Origin: a virus
IMG/VR virus record: IMGVR_UViG_3300014720_002669
Reading direction: 5' to 3' (one strand)
Length of the DNA: 64,000 nucleotides
Position numbers and translations under genes: made by a program. Under the pieces are notes generated by a model. The model ran no database searches and was not told where the DNA came from. It saw only the letters and a program-made list of their open reading frames with translations. Positions within the stretch are counted from its first letter, which is position 1, and each line of letters begins with the position of its first letter. Positions 2,150 through 60,586 of this stretch are shown in pieces.

Positions 2150-3532
2150 TTAGAAGTTGATTTGTGTGCGAATGCTAACAACATCTTCCCTGCTGGTGGT
2201 GCCCATGTCAGTGGTATCCAATGGAGCAATTGCTGAGCCAAACTTGGTATAGGCATAGTTGGCCATGATTCTGGCATTGTTGTTGAGAATCCAGTTCACA
2301 CCATATGTCACTGTCTGAGCAGAATTGGCATTCTGTGTACGGTTGCCTGTCACAGCACCGTCAACACTGTTGCTGCCTGCTGCTGTGTATTCAGAAACAC
2401 GAACTCCCACTTGCCATGCACCTGTGCCATTGCCTACAACACCGCCATAGTCTTTCATAAACACTGATGATGGGGTGATACCGCCAAAGGTGCCACCTTT
2501 ATAACTTTTAGCAAAGTCTTCACCTGTGATATTGTACATGACTTCCACATACTTGGCCTGCACTCGTACGTCTTGTGTGGCCACACAAGCAGAGGTCACA
2601 CAACTGGCAGCACCTGTGACATAGTTATAGGTGTTGGCTGATGCTGAGTATTTGCTGTCAAAGTTTTCTGCTTGAATTTTGAATGGACCATGAGCCAAGG
2701 CCAATTCAATACCGTTCATGGTACGATTCACACTGGCAGCATTGTTGGCAGTGGCTCCATAGGCTGCTGTGTCAACTTTGTCACCGCCGATTTGAGCACG
2801 ATACACATTGCTCATGCCACGTGCTTCTGAGCGTAGTGCTACAATTGTACCACGTGTGGTTGTGCTGGGCGCATCAACTGTGTTGCCCGAAGTTGTTGGC
2901 ACCATCTGTGCCCGTCCACCAGTCTGTGCCACACCTACATGTAATACAGTGTTGGGATTGGATGCCAGTTGACCAAAATTCACAGCCACACGTGCCGCAT
3001 ACTGTGCGCCCAGAGTGTTGTCACTGGAACTTTCTGCGAAGTCACCTTGAAATGCTGATAATCCATAAACAAATCCTGCACTGGGTTCACCGTGCAGCAT
3101 CACACCCAGACGTTTGCCTGGAACCAATTGATTGCCATATGAACGTTCCATGAAGCCGATGTTGTTTGAACTGGTGAGTTCTTCCAGGCTAAACGGCTGC
3201 TTGAATCGACCTGTACGGAATTGTGCTGATTGATTGAAGCCATAGTTCACAAAGGCAGTGTCAATGAAGTTGGTGTTGCTGCCTACAGCATTGCCCACCA
3301 ACTCATAGTTGATCTGCTTGTTGATACTGCCATTGATACCAATTCTGGCTCTACGCAGTTCAAAGTTGTCGCCCACGCTGGCGCTGTCACGGTCTGTGGA
3401 TTTGGTCAGGTCCGAATCAAATGTTCGTGTGTCAAAATGCACACGGCCTGTGACCTTGGAATCCACCTGTGCCATTGCTGGCGCTGTCAGGGCCACAAAT
3501 GCAGCGGCCAAGATTAATTTAGTAAATTTCAT
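2150..3532 (-). CDS. Phosphate-selective porin, OprO/OprP family
   Basis: Signal peptide, FELRRARIG, GRFKQPFSLEELTSSN..FMERS, GVNW, terminal Phe; directly downstream of pstS. Confidence 0.9.
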   Translation of the reverse strand: MKFTKLILAAAFVALTAPAMAQVDSKVTGRVHFDTRTFDSDLTKSTDRDSASVGDNFELRRARIGINGSINKQINYELVGNAVGSNTNFIDTAFVNYGFNQSAQFRTGRFKQPFSLEELTSSNNIGFMERSYGNQLVPGKRLGVMLHGEPSAGFVYGLSAFQGDFAESSSDNTLGAQYAARVAVNFGQLASNPNTVLHVGVAQTGGRAQMVPTTSGNTVDAPSTTTRGTIVALRSEARGMSNVYRAQIGGDKVDTAAYGATANNAASVNRTMNGIELALAHGPFKIQAENFDSKYSASANTYNYVTGAASCVTSACVATQDVRVQAKYVEVMYNITGEDFAKSYKGGTFGGITPSSVFMKDYGGVVGNGTGAWQVGVRVSEYTAAGSNSVDGAVTGNRTQNANSAQTVTYGVNWILNNNARIMANYAYTKFGSAIAPLDTTDMGTTSREDVVSIRTQINF

Positions 3533-3596
3533 ATTTCTCCTTTAGATTTACTTTTGCGATATAACATAATATGTAGTGCAGTCAACACCACAGTGA

Positions 3597-4616
3597 TTAT
3601 TTCTTGATCTGGGACCAAACACGGTCACGAATCTGTTGAGTCAAGGTGTCTGGCAGTGGTACGTAATCCAAATCCAATGCTGCCTTTCGTCCATTTTTAA
3701 ATGCCCAATCAAAGAATTTCAATACCTCTGCACTTTGGCGAAGGTCGGTGGGATCCTTGTACATGAGAATAAAACTGGCAGTGGTCACTGGCCATACACT
3801 GTCGCCTTTTTGATCCACAATGCTCAGGGCCATGCCTGGTACTGAGAACCAATCTGCCCCAGCAGCCGCGGCAGCAAAGGTGGTGTCATCTGGTGATACC
3901 CAGCGACCATTGCGGTTCTGCATCTGCATGAACACCAATCGGTTTTTCTTTACATAGGCATATTCAACATAGCCAATGCTACCTCGGATTCGTGCCACGT
4001 TGGCTGCTACACCTTCATTGCCTTTACCGCCCACAGATGTTGCGGCAGGCCACTTCACAGCAGCACCACGACCCACACGTTCCAACCAAGCAGGACTCAC
4101 TGTGCTGAGATAATCGGTCCAGTTGAAGGTGGTGCCGGAACCATCAGCACGATGTACCACAGTGATGACTTGATCGGGCAAGGCTTTGCCGGGATTGAGA
4201 GCCATAAGCCGAGCATCGTTCCATTTGGAGATTTCGCCTAGAAAAATCTCTGCCAGCACTGGTCCAGTGACTCGGAGTTCACCTGGTCGGAATCCTGGTA
4301 AATTCACAGTAGGTACAGTACCGCCTATGACGGCAGGAAATTGCACCAGGCCTTCTTTTTCCAATTCTGCACCTGACATGGGTGCATCACTGGCGCCAAA
4401 TGTCACTGTCTTGGCCTTGATCTGTCGCAGGCCACCTGAACTGCCAATGCTTTGATAGTTTAACTGAGTGTCGTGTTTTTCACTGTAGATTTCGGCCCAC
4501 TTGCTGTAAATGGGAAAGGGGAAAGTTGCGCCTGCCCCAGTGATGATGTTTTGAGCATTTGCTGATGGACTCAACAAATACAGTGTTGCGGCCAACAAGG
4601 CCAAGATTTTTTTCAT
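3597..4616 (-). CDS. pstS: Phosphate ABC transporter substrate-binding protein
   Basis: GAGATFP, NYQSIGSSGG, FGASDAP, HRADGSGTT, GKGNEGVA, GYVEY. ATG 4616 has an AAGG SD. Confidence 0.97.
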   Translation of the reverse strand: MKKILALLAATLYLLSPSANAQNIITGAGATFPFPIYSKWAEIYSEKHDTQLNYQSIGSSGGLRQIKAKTVTFGASDAPMSGAELEKEGLVQFPAVIGGTVPTVNLPGFRPGELRVTGPVLAEIFLGEISKWNDARLMALNPGKALPDQVITVVHRADGSGTTFNWTDYLSTVSPAWLERVGRGAAVKWPAATSVGGKGNEGVAANVARIRGSIGYVEYAYVKKNRLVFMQMQNRNGRWVSPDDTTFAAAAAGADWFSVPGMALSIVDQKGDSVWPVTTASFILMYKDPTDLRQSAEVLKFFDWAFKNGRKAALDLDYVPLPDTLTQQIRDRVWSQIKK

Positions 4617-18403: not shown

Positions 18404-18565
18404 TCATACTATACCTCTTTGTTGATCTTGATAGTACTGACGTTCCATCATTTCAACGTCGGCGGTATTTTGGGGATGGCGGGCGGCAATGTATTGTTCC
18501 AGCTTGCTTTGATAATTGTTGCTGGGGAACATTTCCGCCAGGCGTTTTAGTAGTTTTTCCAACAT
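18404..18565 (-). CDS. Small helical protein (53 aa), coupled to a 30-aa ORF at 18315-18407
   Basis: Hand translation MLEKLLKRLAEMFPSNNYQSKLEQYIAARHPQNTADVE...; GAGG SD; ATGA overlap. Confidence 0.55.
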   Translation of the reverse strand: MLEKLLKRLAEMFPSNNYQSKLEQYIAARHPQNTADVEMMERQYYQDQQRGIV

Positions 18566-18694
18566 GTTTTTCCTCTGTATTTGCCATGATATTTATGTCA
18601 TGGTTTCTACTGAGTACTACTTTGGTACTACTTTTGGGTGGTTGACCAATAATTCACACCATGCTACAATTAGAACATGCAAAAAGGAGTTATC

Positions 18695-19045: not shown

Positions 19046-19399
19046 ATGAAATGGTTTGCTGAAACCACGGACTACCGGGACTCGGTGCCCAATGGTGTGT
19101 ACCTCTTGGATGATTCCAAGAGCAAGATGTACGCATTCCGTCCAGGCCATAAAGGCAGTGAGGTCAAAGTGTTTGCCAATCCCATTCGCATTGACATTCG
19201 CGGTCGTAAATTCAAGTTGAACTCTGTGCAGTTCAAGACCGCACTGAAAGAAGAAGAACCCGAAGGTCGTACAATCGAAGTAACCGGCAGTCGAGGTGAC
19301 ATCTACCGGGTCACAGAGTTGAATGGTAACTGGAGTTGTACCTGCAGTGGCTTTAAATTTAGATCTAAATGCCGTCATATTGAGCAGTTATCAAAATGA
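19046..19399 (+). CDS. SWIM zinc-finger protein (target gene of endonuclease cassette 1)
   Basis: GSRGDIYRV..WSCTCSGFKFRSKCRH fits the CxC-x(n)-CxH SWIM motif. Confidence 0.8.
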   Translation: MKWFAETTDYRDSVPNGVYLLDDSKSKMYAFRPGHKGSEVKVFANPIRIDIRGRKFKLNSVQFKTALKEEEPEGRTIEVTGSRGDIYRVTELNGNWSCTCSGFKFRSKCRHIEQLSK

Positions 19400-19998
19400 T
19401 ATCTATTCATGTTGCCTGGATTTGTACTTTGTTTATTACAATGAGGACATGTAATGACAGGTCTTTCTTTATTTTGTAATCTTCTAAGTTCGGCCTGTGC
19501 AAGTTTGCGTTCAGGAGTCCATGCTTTACGCATTTTGTTTTTTGAATCTTCATTACGTTTTGATCCTAACATGAATGCTCGAACCTTTTCACCAAAACCA
19601 TTTGGTTTTTTGCGACCTTTGTTTTTTAAAGATGATAGCAGAGCATTTCTTGTTTTCCCTTCGGGAGTACGAACATCTCCACAACCACGAGGACGTCCTT
19701 TACCTCCGCCATCGCCCTCTTCGATGCGTAAGTTTGCCCAGCCATCATTAGATACAACATTCCAAAGTTGGCTGTAAAAAATGCCTGTTTCTTTTATCTT
19801 ATCTTTGTCAGTCGTTTCAAATAATATTTCCGTATGAACTTGATTACCGTGTTTCTTCAAATGAAGTCTCCAATATTTTCCCGATCCTCGATAAATCAAT
19901 GGGTCTTGTTTTGTATAACCAAGATATTTCAATCCTGTGAGTTGATGCGTTTTAACGTAGAGTTTGTAAGTGTCCATGCATTTATTTATGCAGACCTT
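19349..19998 (-). mobile_element. Free-standing homing endonuclease cassette 1 carrying a replacement 3' end of the SWIM gene
   Basis: Recoded tail GFKFRSKCRHIEQLSK* at 19349-19399, antisense GIY-YIG ORF, CATAAATA promoter, then the displaced tail at 19999-20046. Confidence 0.75.
19375..19977 (-). CDS. GIY-YIG (Seg-like) homing endonuclease
   Basis: LYVKTH..TGLKYLGYT, YRGSGKYW, WANL..E.GDGG, NUMOD-like basic repeats, C-terminal CPHC..RYHFDNC; AT-rich. Confidence 0.85.
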   Translation of the reverse strand: MDTYKLYVKTHQLTGLKYLGYTKQDPLIYRGSGKYWRLHLKKHGNQVHTEILFETTDKDKIKETGIFYSQLWNVVSNDGWANLRIEEGDGGGKGRPRGCGDVRTPEGKTRNALLSSLKNKGRKKPNGFGEKVRAFMLGSKRNEDSKNKMRKAWTPERKLAQAELRRLQNKERPVITCPHCNKQSTNPGNMNRYHFDNCSI

Positions 19999-20046
19999 GG
20001 ATTCAAGTTTCGTGGCGACTGCCGACATATTAAGAGCGTAAAATGA
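19999..20046 (+). pseudogene. Displaced original 3' end of the SWIM gene
   Basis: Reads GFKFRGDCRHIKSVK*; its TGA overlaps the ATG of the next gene (20043). Confidence 0.8.
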
Positions 20047-57062: not shown

Positions 57063-57259
57063 ACATCAACTGTGAAAAGTGCAACGCTACATTTGAATGT
57101 GGTGCTCACACTGGACACTGCTGGTGCTTTGAATTAGAACACATTACTCCCGACAATTGCGGCACAAACTGTTTGTGCCAATCCTGTTTGCAACAACTAG
57201 TAGACGACAAAAATGAAACAACTCTGGACCGAAAAGTACCGCCCCAACACACTAATTGA
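57059..57259 (+). CDS. Cysteine-rich CWC family protein
   Basis: CEKC..FEC...CWC...CLC..CL. Confidence 0.65.
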   Translation: MNINCEKCNATFECGAHTGHCWCFELEHITPDNCGTNCLCQSCLQQLVDDKNETTLDRKVPPQHTN

Positions 57260-58136
57260 TTATGTGTTTCGTGATCAAGCACAGCGAGAACAAGTAGAAG
57301 GTTGGGTACGGTCTGGTGCTATTCCGCACCTGCTGTTCTCTGGCTCACCAGGTGTGGGCAAGACCACCCTGGCCCGGATCTTGATCCAGGAACTGGGCAT
57401 TGATCCATTTGATGTGATGGAAATCAATGCATCAAGAGAAAACAACATTGACACAATCCGTGCCAAGATCACCAGCTTTGTGCAGACCATGCCATTTGGT
57501 GATTTCAAGATTGTGTTGTTGGACGAAGCAGACTACATCACGCCCAATGGTCAGGCAGCCCTGCGTGGTGTGATGGAGACGTATTCCAGCACTGCCCGAT
57601 TCATTCTCACTTGTAACTATCCCAATCGTGTTATTCCAGCCTTGCACAGCAGATGTCAAGGATTTCACATTGAGAAAGTGGATGTGACAGAGTTCACTGC
57701 TAGAATGGCCACCATACTGGTGACAGAGTCAGCGGAGTTTGATTTAGACACCTTGGACAGTTATGTCAAGGCCACTTATCCAGATCTTCGCAAGTGTATC
57801 AACTTGTGCCAAATGAACACTGTGGATAGCAGACTCAATGCACCACACGGCGACGAAGGTGGTGCAACGTCTGACTACTTGCTCACAGCAGTGGACCTGT
57901 TCAAGCGTGGTCGAACACGTGAAGCCAGAACCTTGCTGTGCCAAAATGTGCGCAGTGAGGACATGGAAAACCTGTTCCGTTGGATGTACGACAACTTGGA
58001 TTTGTGGGGCACCACACCCGAACGTCAAGACCAAGCCATCATAATCATCCGTAACAGCGCAGCCAATGCCAGTCTTGTGGCAGACCATGAAATCAACTTG
58101 AGCGCCACAATTGTAGAACTGTGTAACATAGAATGA
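57213..58136 (+). CDS. Clamp loader AAA+ subunit (RFC small / gp44-like)
   Basis: WTEKYRP, GSPGVGKTT, INAS, LDEAD, FILTCN, SRC. Confidence 0.93.
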   Translation: MKQLWTEKYRPNTLIDYVFRDQAQREQVEGWVRSGAIPHLLFSGSPGVGKTTLARILIQELGIDPFDVMEINASRENNIDTIRAKITSFVQTMPFGDFKIVLLDEADYITPNGQAALRGVMETYSSTARFILTCNYPNRVIPALHSRCQGFHIEKVDVTEFTARMATILVTESAEFDLDTLDSYVKATYPDLRKCINLCQMNTVDSRLNAPHGDEGGATSDYLLTAVDLFKRGRTREARTLLCQNVRSEDMENLFRWMYDNLDLWGTTPERQDQAIIIIRNSAANASLVADHEINLSATIVELCNIE

Positions 58137-58426
58137 GATACCTGCTGTTGACCTATATGACCAAACCCGACGGCCGAATTGACGAAGTTATGGCCGTGGC
58201 TCGAAATCTCAAAAAAAGAGACATTGCCACTTGCAATGTCATACTTGACTTCAAAACCTTGAGTGTGTTAAAATGCAGCATGGCAGGCACAACTGTGCCC
58301 AGGGATTTTGATCGCATAGCCGGTTACTATCATCAACACTATGCAGCCACCATAGAACGATTATTCAAAGAAAATGGATACCAAGTTGAAGTCAACAACC
58401 CCGAAACCAAACCTGATTTTAGTTGA
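58133..58426 (+). CDS. Hypothetical protein
   Basis: ATGA-coupled ORF. Confidence 0.6.
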   Translation: MRYLLLTYMTKPDGRIDEVMAVARNLKKRDIATCNVILDFKTLSVLKCSMAGTTVPRDFDRIAGYYHQHYAATIERLFKENGYQVEVNNPETKPDFS

Positions 58427-58994
58427 CGCAGATGGCGTCTTGCTCGACTGGGAGTTTGCTTTCTCAATCTGGATGGACGAACACGGATTTGTTAAACAGG
58501 AGGGTCACCAATTTGAATACGACATTGGTGACCGTTATGGTGTAGGACACAAACAGGGCCGCAAACTTATAAAAATGTTCAACGAATCAGCCGCAATTGG
58601 ATTCTTGCCACCCTTGCGTGATGCCATGTACTATGTGAAACGACTGCACGAAGAACATGGCTATGTGTTTCATTGCATCACCAGTCTCAGCACAGACGTC
58701 AACGCTGGCCGACTGAGAGAAATGAACCTGCGCAAATTGTTTGGCAAAACAGCATTTGAAGATGTGACTTGTTTGGCCACAGGTGCTGCTAAAAACTATG
58801 CCTTGGAACCCTATGCTGGATCAGGACTGTGGTGGTTTGAGGACAAAATTGAAAATGCGGTTGTTGGACATGAAATGGGTCTTAAATCTGTGCTAATAGA
58901 GCATGGACACAATATGACTTTTGAACACCCGAACATTCCTAGGGTAAAAAATTGGAAAGAGATTTACGATCTTATAACCAATGCCAGCCACTAA
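58374..58994 (+). CDS. HAD-superfamily phosphatase / 5'-nucleotidase-like protein (target gene of cassette 2)
   Basis: DADGVLLDW (motif I), ITS (motif II), EDKIEN (motif IV), VKNW.EI. Confidence 0.8.
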   Translation: MDTKLKSTTPKPNLILVDADGVLLDWEFAFSIWMDEHGFVKQEGHQFEYDIGDRYGVGHKQGRKLIKMFNESAAIGFLPPLRDAMYYVKRLHEEHGYVFHCITSLSTDVNAGRLREMNLRKLFGKTAFEDVTCLATGAAKNYALEPYAGSGLWWFEDKIENAVVGHEMGLKSVLIEHGHNMTFEHPNIPRVKNWKEIYDLITNASH

Positions 58995-59625
58995 CTCCGC
59001 GTTTAATTAATCCACCGATTGCTTCTGGAGTTATTCCATATGCTTTTGCAGCATCACCTCTACTTTGGAATATCTCTCCACTAGGAGAAATACACGGCTT
59101 CCTTCCATACTGTGATAATTTCATTTTTGTTTCAGCGGTATGTGGTTTTTTATATTTTATTATTCTGCCAGGCACAAAAATATCAGGTTGTGTTCCTTCG
59201 GGCACGTAAATATTTTCTGTCCCATTGTTATACCATCTAAGATTATTTTCAACAATAGCCGATCTACCAAACATTGAATTCTTAGAGCCTGTTGTGTCTC
59301 TCTTCGCCATGCCTATCCTATAATTTTCACATCTTGATGTGTCACCACCGTCTCCTGTTTCGGGACGCATATTTGCAAAATTTTGATCATTAACAACATC
59401 CCATAATTCTGAATAGTATTGTCCTTTTGTTTTAATTTCTTCAAGATTGTCGGATTCAAAAAGAATTAAGGTGGAAACATCATTACCGTGTTTGGCTAAA
59501 TGACGAGTCCACCTTAATCCAGATCCTTTATATTTGTAAGGATCTCCTGTAGTTTTACCAAGGTACTTCAGGCCAGTAACTTGGTGCGTTTTCAAATACA
59601 GATATGTTTTTATAATTTTATTTAT
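58839..59625 (-). mobile_element. Free-standing homing endonuclease cassette 2 carrying a replacement 3' end of the HAD gene
   Basis: Tail EDKIENA...VKNWKEIYDLIT at 58839-58994, antisense GIY-YIG ORF, CATAAATA, then the degenerate old tail at 59626-59689. Confidence 0.75.
58972..59613 (-). CDS. GIY-YIG (Seg-like) homing endonuclease; ATA occupies the expected start position
   Basis: (I)KTYLYLKTHQVTGLKYLGKT, YKGSG.RW, FAN.RPETGDGG, NSMFGR, WYNNG, HTAETK.KLS. Confidence 0.82.
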   Translation of the reverse strand: MKTYLYLKTHQVTGLKYLGKTTGDPYKYKGSGLRWTRHLAKHGNDVSTLILFESDNLEEIKTKGQYYSELWDVVNDQNFANMRPETGDGGDTSRCENYRIGMAKRDTTGSKNSMFGRSAIVENNLRWYNNGTENIYVPEGTQPDIFVPGRIIKYKKPHTAETKMKLSQYGRKPCISPSGEIFQSRGDAAKAYGITPEAIGGLIKRGVSGWHWL

Positions 59626-59689
59626 GAAGATAAACTAGAAAACGCTAGTTAAAAATTGGCGGGAAATCTACGCAATAATCACCTCCTAA
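59626..59689 (+). pseudogene. Displaced, internally deleted original 3' end of the HAD gene
   Basis: EDKLENA, one extra base, then VKNWREIYAIITS*; its TAA overlaps the phoH stop. Confidence 0.8.
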
Positions 59690-60420
59690 ACCGCGTAGAG
59701 TTTCAACACTGACCCAATAATGCTGTGGCGTTGCACGTCACGAGTTTGCATTTCGCACACAGCAATTCCTGCAACTGCGGTTTGTTGCAGTTTCGCACAT
59801 AGATCCAGCAAGCCGTTGTCTCCTTGAGCACGGTCTGCTTGATCCACATCTCCTGTGATCACAATTTTGGAGTTTTGTCCAATGCGTGTCATCAGCATCT
59901 TGACCTGTGCTGGTGTTGCATTCTGCATTTCGTCTGCGATGATCCACGAATTACGGAAGGTCCGGCCTCTCATGTATGCCAGAGGAGATAGGTCCAGAAT
60001 CTGATCTTCAATCATGGCCAAGATATCTTGTGGCCTATAGTATTCACGCATGACGTCCAAGAGCGGACGAGTCCAAGGTTCCATTTTGGCAACCAAGTTA
60101 CCGGGAAGAAAGCCATGGCTCTCACCCTCTACACCCACTGCGGGTCTTGTCAGCACTATTCGATCGCATACTCCTTCTCTAAGATTTTTAACAGCAGCCT
60201 GCATTGCCAGGTACGTCTTACCTGTTCCAGCGGGTCCGGCTGTGACGACAATGTGTTGATCGGGATCTTGCAGGGCCATGACCAGTCGTTCTTGATTTCG
60301 TGTTCGAGGGATCAAGTCAATGCGGCGAGGTTGTGCTCGCGGTACATTGTTAAAGGCTATGGTGTTTGCTACTTCCAGATTCATACGTTTTTGTGCTTTT
60401 TGTGCTCGTTGTCTACTCAA
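59686..60420 (-). CDS. phoH: PhoH-like ATPase
   Basis: GPAGTGKT, LTRPAV, GFLPG, LAYMRGRTF, DEMQN, TRIG, TGD..Q.D, RH; TTG start with AGGAG. Confidence 0.95.
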   Translation of the reverse strand: MSRQRAQKAQKRMNLEVANTIAFNNVPRAQPRRIDLIPRTRNQERLVMALQDPDQHIVVTAGPAGTGKTYLAMQAAVKNLREGVCDRIVLTRPAVGVEGESHGFLPGNLVAKMEPWTRPLLDVMREYYRPQDILAMIEDQILDLSPLAYMRGRTFRNSWIIADEMQNATPAQVKMLMTRIGQNSKIVITGDVDQADRAQGDNGLLDLCAKLQQTAVAGIAVCEMQTRDVQRHSIIGSVLKLYAV

Positions 60421-60586
60421 GTGTGATTCTCCTAAGCCCTGTAGGGCCAGGTATTTACGGTGCAACTTTGTACAATAACGGAGTGGTATTTTCAAGTGCG
60501 GGGTCACTAAATACTGACCAGGCCGCAAAAAACCAACCGACCAAACTCTATTGAGCGTGTGCAATCACTTTGGTAAATACAGCATT

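Follow-up and report, generated by a model that had tools for sequence, protein, structure and literature searches.

The subject of this analysis is a nuclease cassette in 64,000 nucleotides (nt) of viral DNA, taken from the IMG/VR record IMGVR_UViG_3300014720_002669 and called the window in the following. The cassette lies between a gene for a HAD-like phosphatase and phoH, and its features are collected in the table below. The product of the HAD-like gene ends with EDKIENA...VKNWKEIYDLITNASH, the terminal sequence before the stop codon being EDKIENAVVGHEMGLKSVLIEHGHNMTFEHPNIPRVKNWKEIYDLITNASH. An antisense open reading frame (ORF), free of stops from 58972 to 59634 on the minus strand, contains the nuclease gene, and the last codons of both genes overlap. 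Between the nuclease start and phoH follow a short box, an element that reads EDKLENA, like the conserved motif IV of the HAD-like protein, and a remnant encoding VKNWREIYAIITS (the VKNW remnant), whose TAA stop (59687-59689) overlaps the phoH stop codon (59686-59688, minus strand) by two bases. In a first-pass annotation of the DNA, the end of the HAD-like gene, the antisense ORF, EDKLENA, the remnant and the overlap of the stops had been described, and all of these sequence statements were found to be correct.

Coordinates of the features discussed (positions in the window)
Feature	Position	Strand	Remarks
HAD-like phosphatase gene	58374..58994	+	206 amino acids (aa); host gene with replaced 3' end
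Working (foreign) HAD tail	58860..58994	+	begins directly behind the ENA codons, ends with the stop
Antisense overlap	58972..58994		23 nt; HAD codons LITNASH-stop opposite the nuclease C-terminal codons VSGWHWL-stop
Predicted free-standing I-TevI-like GIY-YIG homing endonuclease gene	58972..59613	-	213 codons; first codon ATA
Box CATAAATA	59619..59626	-	5 nt before the nuclease start
Motif-IV element GAAGATAAACTAGAAAACGCT	59626..59646	+	21 nt, reads EDKLENA; abuts the box
Native HAD tail remnant VKNWREIYAIITS	59648..59689	+	42 nt; one base after EDKLENA, in a different frame
Possible hairpin after phoH	59667..59699	-	arms: phoH end 59690-59699, old HAD tail 59667-59676
phoH	59686-60564	-	Pfam PhoH, expectation value (E) 1.4e-65; co-oriented with the nuclease and upstream of it, convergent with HAD
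RFC-like clamp-loader gene	57213-58136	+	upstream of the HAD-like gene
97-aa ORF			between the clamp-loader gene and the HAD-like gene
First cassette, same design	19046..20046		SWIM-like gene 19046-19399 (+), nuclease 19375-19977 (-)
First cassette, box	19983-19990	-
First cassette, native tail remnant	19999-20046	+	TGA overlaps the ATG of the next gene

The VKNW remnant can be identified by comparison with related phages. The comparison covered the 80 viral contigs whose HAD genes are closest to that of the window (loci used for comparison carry L numbers). In about 27 of these 80 loci, with 19 distinct endings, the HAD gene meets phoH directly with nothing in between, and most of these junctions show either overlapping stop codons or ORFs that share 3-31 nt. 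The closest relative with such an empty site, L003, whose PhoH is 92% identical in amino acids to that of the window, terminates its functional HAD gene with VKNWREIYAIITSYTA, and the remnant is identical to this tail in 38 of 39 nt. Further tails match in 36 of 39 nt (L007, L011, L017 and L061), the one of L017 being identical in protein, and the register in which the remnant overlaps the phoH stop is that of many empty sites, where the two stops have the same 3 nt in common. By these comparisons, the VKNW piece represents the native end of the HAD gene, which has kept its original register with phoH. Within the window, blastn aligns the HAD tail with the remnant over 25/36 nt (E 0.003), and in the flank test described below the cassette scores 54, against 39.5 and 47 for the 95th and 99th percentiles of the null. 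Together with the match to L003, this places the similarity above chance. The nuclease and the same remnant are found at the same site in four contigs of two lineages (L001/L002 and L004/L005); since these derive from other metagenomes, the layout is not an assembly artefact.

The tail in use by the HAD-like gene has another origin. Compared with L003, the gene shows a nucleotide identity of 81% upstream of motif IV, which falls to 63% from there to VKNW and is 67% beyond it, the break being located right after the ENA codons. This pattern indicates that the working tail is foreign, and it is better described as brought from another lineage than as recoded, the word chosen in the first-pass annotation. 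All residues that are invariant in the family (G, GL, EHGHNM, NW) are retained in it. The tail of L004 has only its last ~16 codons (VKNWKEIYHLITNATH) in common with the window and its preceding codons are like those of L004's own relatives, a short shared stretch which fits homing with variable co-conversion. The antisense overlap of HAD and nuclease amounts to the same 23 nt in L083, L085 and L087, and to 26 nt in L089.

Occupied HAD sites were detected in at least nine lineages and stand against the ~27 empty loci, which represents a presence/absence polymorphism. All full-length nuclease homologs examined (54-88% identity, same C-terminal domain) are situated at the 3' end of a HAD gene. 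The nucleases of the window, L001/2, L004/5, L087/L273, L089, L092, L362 and L364 run antisense to HAD, and among these cassettes L087, L089, L092, L362 and L364 are without a VKNW remnant. Co-oriented with HAD and converging directly on phoH are the nucleases of L088/L285, L090/91 and L359; the nuclease of L360 is co-oriented as well, and two further genes lie between it and phoH.

The nuclease matches phrog_314 (homing endonuclease, E 1e-12), and a search of the window protein against Pfam gave no match. Among 38 homologs, NUMOD3 was recognized in 16 and I-TevI_DNA-bd, weakly, in 6; their profile found no match among the PDB sequences. A structure model was built from these homologs for the protein of L001, which is 88% identical to the window nuclease (mean predicted local distance difference test score, pLDDT, 87). 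The catalytic domain of I-TevI (1mk0) aligns to this model with Z 10.3 and a root-mean-square deviation (rmsd) of 2.5 Å over 86 of 97 residues, and the helix-turn-helix DNA-binding domain of I-TevI (1i3j) with Z 7.6 and 1.0 Å over 42 residues. The GIY-YIG domains of UvrC, Slx1, Eco29kI and PD-T4-3 align below I-TevI, and the three best Foldseek matches of the model are I-TevI chains (probability 1.00). As modelled, the nuclease has a GIY-YIG domain at its N-terminus, which a linker joins to a C-terminal helix-turn-helix domain for DNA binding. In the family, the N-terminal domain of ~95 aa follows the pattern YLYLKTHxxTGLKYLG ... GSGxxWxxH ... ANxxxExGDGG, while the C-terminal modules differ between subfamilies. 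Motifs of the GIY/YIG type, ~10 residues apart, are present in the first block, with Y6, Y17 and G19 (near-)invariant in the 38 homologs.

An ATG start codon, placed directly ahead of the YLY strand, was found in 80 of 82 nuclease loci, or in 81 after correction of the mis-set start of L150 (ATG three bases on), and the nuclease of the window is the only one with another first codon (ATA, 59611-59613). The next start in frame, a TTG at 59593-59595, would cost the protein its first beta-strand (YLY). Apart from the first codon the ORF is undamaged, and its ratio of non-synonymous to synonymous substitution rates (dN/dS) against L001 is 0.14; such a low value indicates that the nuclease has been maintained over a long time. 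The window probably holds a recently silenced copy that is no longer made. In another subfamily of the nucleases (e.g. L100, L107, L118, L143 and L371) a conserved module is found in the 60 nt upstream of the ATG, composed of a GC-rich stem-loop, CTCTAA, a ribosome-binding site and CAGCATG. By analogy with the endonuclease genes of T4, this module may be a hairpin for translational control.

The HAD-like protein matches phrog_420 (function unknown, E 1e-32), and no match to it was obtained in Pfam. Among 15 HAD relatives, neither motif I (DADGV) nor motif IV (EDKxxN) varies. A structure model of low confidence (mean pLDDT 57) finds mostly HAD hydrolases among the top Foldseek matches listed (best E 5e-4), including 5'(3')-deoxyribonucleotidases; the exceptions are three engineered or designed enzymes and the Mycobacterium kinase PtkA. 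A search of the HAD profile against PDB sequences gave nothing significant, the weak best match being an XMP phosphatase (E 0.4).

The box before the nuclease start is the boundary given as TATTTATG in the first-pass annotation, and we take it to resemble the late promoter of T4, TATAAATA. A box of the form [CGT]ATAA[AG]TA, 4-5 nt before the ATG, is present in 12 of 12 HAD-clade cassettes, in the SWIM cassette of the window (WIN1) and in L368. All HAD-clade cassettes have, upstream of the ATG, 4-5 nt, then the box, which in this clade has the form [CG]ATAA[AG]TA, and then an element of 18-21 nt, and this order is kept in both orientations. On the opposite strand the element has the form GAAGATAAAC[CT]AGAAAAC, corresponding to E-D-K-P/L-E-N. 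It is also present in the five antisense cassettes without a VKNW remnant, is inverted relative to HAD in L088, L090, L359 and L360, and no longer spells EDKPEN in L359 (EDK-stop-EK) and L362 (EDKAKN). Over ~31 nt the majority base is common to 8-12 of the 12 cassettes, compared with 5-7 further upstream. In L004/L005, element and tail piece are read in one frame (EDKPENAIKNWREIYEIVTS before the stop).

The spacer of 76 nt between the nuclease start and the phoH stop shows 6 differences between the window and L001, against 33% at synonymous sites of the nuclease; for L004 the values are ~8 differences in 75 nt and 58%. The spacer is strongly constrained and evolves several times slower than the synonymous sites of the nuclease. 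Its two remnant halves have different histories: the element of the window agrees with motif IV of L003 in 14/21 nt and with the elements of L004 and L087 in 19-20/21, whereas 38/39 nt of the adjoining VKNW piece agree with L003. When the best ungapped match of each element was sought in the HAD genes without a cassette, on both strands, 11 of 11 distinct elements pointed to motif IV, in register. The three best elements score 18-19/21 there, which was not attained by any of 60 shuffles. The likeness of the element to HAD motif IV is therefore regarded as real, with moderate support. The element may well have originated as the start of an old tail, in line with the first-pass annotation, and at present behaves as a conserved component of the cassette. 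We read it as a putative copy of the homing or binding site of the nuclease, possibly an operator for self-repression as in I-TevI.

Upstream of the nuclease, no promoter of the sigma-70 type was found on the nuclease strand, and the spacer holds neither a terminator-like site nor a match to an Rfam family. If the box acts as a T4 late promoter, its fixed distance of 5 nt would put the first transcribed base on the ATG, and with the box 4-5 nt before the ATG and no ribosome-binding site between them this transcript would be leaderless. Given such a start, the ATA of the window would abolish translation. We also considered the box as a general promoter of the phage, which is not supported by the counts in the window (CATAAATA five times with two expected, TATAAATA twice with one expected). 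An exact scan of viral contigs for the AT-rich 16-mer TTTATCTTCATAAATA delivered mostly chance matches; beside two known cassettes, the only real ones among the newly fetched loci were L248 (= L091), L273 and L285. In L087 (2940-2990) and L273 (1-45), the element and an inverted copy of itself form a perfect palindrome of 14 bp (AAGATAAACCAGAA ... TTCTGGTTTATCTT), located just after the stop of the upstream gene. One of the three other CATAAATA boxes of the window (18590-18597, minus strand) lies 25 nt upstream of a 53-aa ORF (18404-18565, minus strand).

The window contains another cassette of the same layout, at a SWIM-like gene. This pairing of two cassettes was the central proposal of the first-pass annotation and is borne out for both sites. 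Of the related SWIM loci that reach the gene end, 78 of 78 are empty and carry native tails such as GFKFRGDCKHIKGVQ; in many of them the stop overlaps the next start (ATGA), and four have the downstream gene of the window. The SWIM remnant agrees with the native tails of these relatives in 48-50 of 68 nt, in register and with the ATGA overlap kept, and the working tail FRSKCRHIEQLSK is atypical compared with the 78 tails of the relatives. In the SWIM cassettes the remnant is continuous and abuts the box, and a real piece of the conserved zinc-finger motif of the target stands at the position of the element. The cassette recurs in L366-368 (nuclease 54% and SWIM gene 50% identical to the window, flank score 53). 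In L368 a working tail of the same type (FRSQCKHLVQLSK) is found, and a TATAAATA box is directly adjoined by a remnant of native type (SGFKFRGDCKHVK).

The occurrence of duplicated gene ends around homologous nucleases was surveyed with a flank test, which takes the best translated direct repeat between both flanks of a nuclease and compares it with a null of mismatched flanks. The survey covered ungapped repeats in flanks of 350 nt on IMG/VR contigs, so that short or old remnants would escape, and each scan of the nuclease family used the best 80 of at least 600 stretches. Sample 1 comprised 75 loci, 46 of them unique by exact nuclease sequence, with the null percentiles given above; sample 2 comprised 61 unique loci (null 99th percentile 39, maximum 40). 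In sample 1, only cassettes at HAD sites and the two cassettes of the window exceeded the null, with scores of 46-58. In sample 2, one of 61 loci was clearly above the null (L428) and three were borderline. A convergent layout with overlapping stops was found at 14 of the 46 unique loci.

Several of the single cases are instructive. Two concern ClpP, as identified by Pfam CLP_protease (E 1e-76), and come from close relatives of the nuclease at the SWIM site: in L371 the nuclease is antisense to the gene, with the working tail VEYGLADEIITRR and the remnant LDYGLIDSIITKR (score 45), and in L369 it is co-oriented and its ORF runs into the old tail YGLADKIIDKRG (score 49). In L428 the tail of a 146-aa gene is duplicated around an antisense nuclease (score 73). 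The head of the downstream gene is duplicated in L411 (~930-1000; MNILVTGGLGR-stop vs MSSILVTGGLG), L393 (~1745-1815; MKIALITDRI-stop vs MRIALITDTHFG) and L452 (~1920-1990; a 506-aa ORF, VHISKKNEEFL-stop vs MKISKKNEVYL). In these three loci the genes are co-directional, the first 8-11 codons are duplicated, and the upstream copy forms a mini-ORF, which has a start of its own, before a TATAAATA-type box. Judged by eye, the gene of L411 is presumably epimerase-like (ILVTGGLG) and that of L393 phosphoesterase-like (MRIALITDTHFG). At L106 (nuclease 2986-3618) a gene is seemingly split: the upstream ORF ends with ...KMKNKIDYSTNWMYK, the frame resumes with KKEKIRYSTNWCGPINHEW..., and the junction is duplicated (score 46).

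From these alignments, at least seven genes bear the duplication footprint, some at the tail and others at the head, and it appears as a recurrent outcome for the nuclease family rather than an obligatory design. The general mechanism postulated in the first-pass annotation, which had also proposed to look for duplicated neighbour ends around related nucleases, thus stands in part: the search added new tails and heads (L366-368, L369, L371, L428, L411, L393 and L452), and most loci are without them, with sample 1 confined to HAD-site and window cassettes and sample 2 to one clear case in 61.

Taken together, we regard it as probable that the locus holds a free-standing homing cassette of I-TevI type which is specialised for the 3' end of the HAD gene, carries a substitute tail and has stranded the native one. 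In empty genomes, HAD and phoH converge with overlapping stops and leave no intergenic DNA for an insertion; for this reason the cassette brings a HAD 3' end with it, and the final codons of this tail are written antisense to the conserved C-terminus of the nuclease. At the origin, a break in or near the conserved motif-IV region would have been repaired with homology on the HAD side only. Donor tail and nuclease would thereby have been copied in, and the recipient DNA distal to the break would have been kept, leaving the native tail stranded beside phoH. Afterwards, ordinary homing may have carried the cassette to further HAD/phoH genomes, the extent of co-conversion being variable. The target of the nuclease would be the conserved motif-IV DNA, and the element may be retained as a site at which the nuclease binds to repress its own promoter, or as the fixed junction.

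Several observations weigh against this explanation. The Pfam models are not significant for the family (GIY-YIG best E 0.32, in 4 of 38 homologs; SegE_GIY-YIG 0.06, in 2 of 38), and at the position of the canonical catalytic Glu, after S68, the residue varies in the 38 homologs, while the invariant N81 and E85 lie elsewhere. Members of the same HAD-specific clade are co-oriented with HAD and have no duplicated tail (L088, L090, L359 and L360), and in both samples most homologous nuclease loci lack a detectable duplication. Single elements reach 16-19/21 against motif IV compared with a shuffled maximum of 16-17, and the 11 elements are related and not independent. The two box motifs are not enriched in the window. 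Occupied HAD alleles differ from their own element by 4-9 mismatches, and EDKP-type alleles without an adjacent cassette differ from the consensus by 2-6. The idea that occupied alleles are immune was set aside on the same figures, as the two ranges overlap and the comparison is confounded by clade.

Among the other explanations, the one closest to the first-pass annotation is that 59626-59689 is the genome's own old HAD tail from motif IV onwards, which lost ~78 bp and now decays neutrally without a role. The single frame of both pieces in L004/L005 is what a deletion derivative would show, and the continuous SWIM remnants that abut the box make such an origin plausible for the ancestral cassette. 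For the present cassettes we hold this account to be unlikely, since the two pieces differ in their similarity to L003, the motif-IV piece accompanies the nuclease even where the old tail is missing or the HAD gene is inverted relative to it, and a spacer that changes several times slower than synonymous sites is not in neutral decay. EDKLENA, present in every cassette of the clade, is accordingly not a mere decayed start of the old tail, and the internal deletion of about 80 bp stated earlier is an interpretation and not an observation. Slightly less credible still is the view that the conserved 31 nt are an extended promoter or leader and resemble motif IV by coincidence, so that only the VKNW piece is a remnant. 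It draws on the scores of single elements near the shuffled maximum, on elements which do not read EDKPEN (L359, L362) and on a pattern of conservation that is typical for a DNA element and not for coding sequence. It leaves unexplained why motif IV, read in register on the sense strand, is the best fit of 11 of 11 elements among all positions of HAD genes without a cassette, why the element adjoins the one gene that bears this motif and is in frame with the tail in L004, and why SWIM cassettes hold a piece of the zinc-finger motif of their own target there.

We consider it very improbable that the nuclease never was, or no longer is, a homing enzyme and instead acts as a domesticated regulator of the HAD/phoH region, the duplication being a by-product of an old rearrangement. 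The missing ATG in the window and the non-conserved catalytic Glu would agree with it, and domesticated homing nucleases are described as regulators in phage satellites (PMC8096241). Hallmarks of mobility are, however, present: close relatives differ in having or lacking the cassette, it is found in either orientation and in several contexts that are unrelated, the family combines with a wide variety of C-terminal DNA-binding modules at numerous genes, and patterns of co-conversion are seen. A chance similarity or a chimeric assembly, for which only the shortness of the remnant (13 + 7 codons) would speak, is effectively refuted by 38/39 identical nt in register, by five contigs from different samples with the same structure and by flank scores above the null. 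The homing cassette with a substitute tail thus remains our preferred explanation. A wider generalisation, by which a nuclease family in freshwater jumbo and other phages invades junctions of zero length with substitute gene ends and a target-mimicking operator at a leaderless late-type promoter, is conceivable, and we put it forward with considerable doubt.

The old tail may take part in an RNA structure. In the minimum-energy fold of the phoH/HAD junction a stem of 10 bp is formed, and over 14 junctions 76% of the cells pair, compared with 31-48% after sliding of the 3' partner; one pair is AU in five and CG in five cases. The inverted repeat over the stops of phoH and HAD may form a hairpin common to both converging transcripts, and the VKNW tail may persist as a hairpin arm behind phoH. 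Against this stand a z-score of -0.01 for the region and the result of RNAalifold, which predicts no consensus structure for the junction. The Tyr-Ala or Tyr-Glu codons near both protein ends were seen to co-vary, with TACGC/GCGTA in the window and TACGAA/TTCGTA in L004.

With regard to the genome, the window is a piece of a viral contig of 103.6 kb, with a completeness of ~30% as estimated by CheckV. Related contigs reach 320-350 kb, which makes the phage a jumbo phage. The start coordinate of phoH is uncertain, as its relatives align only from about residue 15-48. In the annotated phage collection, DNA and protein searches found only distant relatives of the nuclease and no relative of the locus. 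In L066 (1635-2003, minus strand) a related nuclease (43-45% identity) occupies another place in the same gene block, with the clamp-loader gene on one side and the 97-aa ORF on the other; the HAD/phoH junction of this locus is empty. A nuclease of 45% identity lies between phoH and a homolog of the 97-aa ORF in L093 and L094 (3001-3660), where the HAD gene is absent; its upstream region differs, with a stem-loop and a ribosome-binding site and without a motif-IV element.

Among known systems, the free-standing seg and mob endonucleases of T4-like phages are comparable in their setting. Their GIY-YIG or HNH genes lie between conserved genes, and the enzymes cleave a conserved gene close by in relatives that lack the endonuclease, so spreading with co-conversion of the flanks (PMC2988022). 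Overlaps with neighbouring ORFs are frequent, segD is antisense to its neighbours, and late promoters of the TATAAATA type are common (PMC2988022). In contrast to the cassettes reported here, the review of these elements knows overlaps and displaced promoters and no duplicated or replaced gene ends (PMC2988022). The window cassette supplies a substitute end while the native end persists, and its family is missed by the GIY-YIG and SegE models of Pfam.

A second comparison is offered by I-TevI, which binds an operator over its own late promoter, with 15/20 identity to the homing site, and represses itself (PMC2988022). The fold of the nuclease matches I-TevI in both domains, and a target-like sequence (16-19/21 here) stands at a putative TATAAATA-type promoter. 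The motif-IV copy is a candidate operator by which a free-standing endonuclease would mimic its target and repress itself; in the review of mobile elements in T4, such self-repression is described only for intron-encoded enzymes (PMC2988022). I-TevI differs in being intron-encoded and in its demonstrated operator and binding, whereas the nuclease of the window is free-standing, and its binding and repression are proposed here by analogy.

In phage Aeh1, mobE splits nrdA. As in the window, a free-standing endonuclease resides within coding DNA and the function of the host gene is kept. However, the Aeh1 gene is divided into two functional pieces without any duplication, and the HAD gene stays whole by means of the substitute end. 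In L106, a gene may have been split in such a way that the junction is duplicated. The case of mobE was shown outside T4 (PMC2988022).

The closest counterparts are mobile ORFs (mORFs) of fungal mitochondria, found in atp6 of Allomyces macrogynus and in atp6, atp9, cox2 and nad3 of Glomus (PMC3630166). Such an element consists of an endonuclease ORF (GIY-YIG in atp9) at the 3' end of a gene and a foreign C-terminus; the native terminus, C*, lies downstream and matches sister species, and the inserted one is divergent (PMC3630166). A one-sided model of break repair was proposed for the mobile ORFs of Allomyces and Glomus (PMC3630166). The identities of inserted and native tails are alike, with 64-81% vs 91-98% in the fungi and 63-67% vs 97% in the window. 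The host, however, is a phage and not an organelle. Both nucleases of the window are antisense to their host gene, so that tail codons stand opposite the nuclease C-terminus, and the co-oriented, in-phase layout of the fungi is matched only by L369. Moreover, the insertion took place between genes with overlapping stops, a copy of the target motif stands at a promoter-like box, and relatives of the window nuclease also duplicate gene heads.

The kind of element, known from fungal mitochondria, and free-standing phage endonucleases are therefore not new. Apparently new, in their combination, are the occurrence in a phage, a tail that is overprinted in antisense, the relatives that replace gene heads and the copy of the target motif at the promoter-like box. 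In a full-text search of the literature, no phage report of replacement gene ends borne by an endonuclease was found, which is not proof that none exists. A selfish nuclease could in this way enter a compact phage genome without spare DNA, by bringing a replacement for the gene end. The stranded native ends would record the position of the break, the donor lineage of the tail and the extent of co-conversion, and homing sites in an uncultured group of phages would become predictable and directly testable. For genome annotation, orphan short ORFs or apparently frameshifted gene ends beside such nucleases should be recognized as remnants. If a family with substitute ends and target mimics exists as outlined, it would constitute the phage counterpart of the mitochondrial mobile ORFs, and the leftover native ends would serve as datable footprints of the cut site and the donor lineage of each nuclease.

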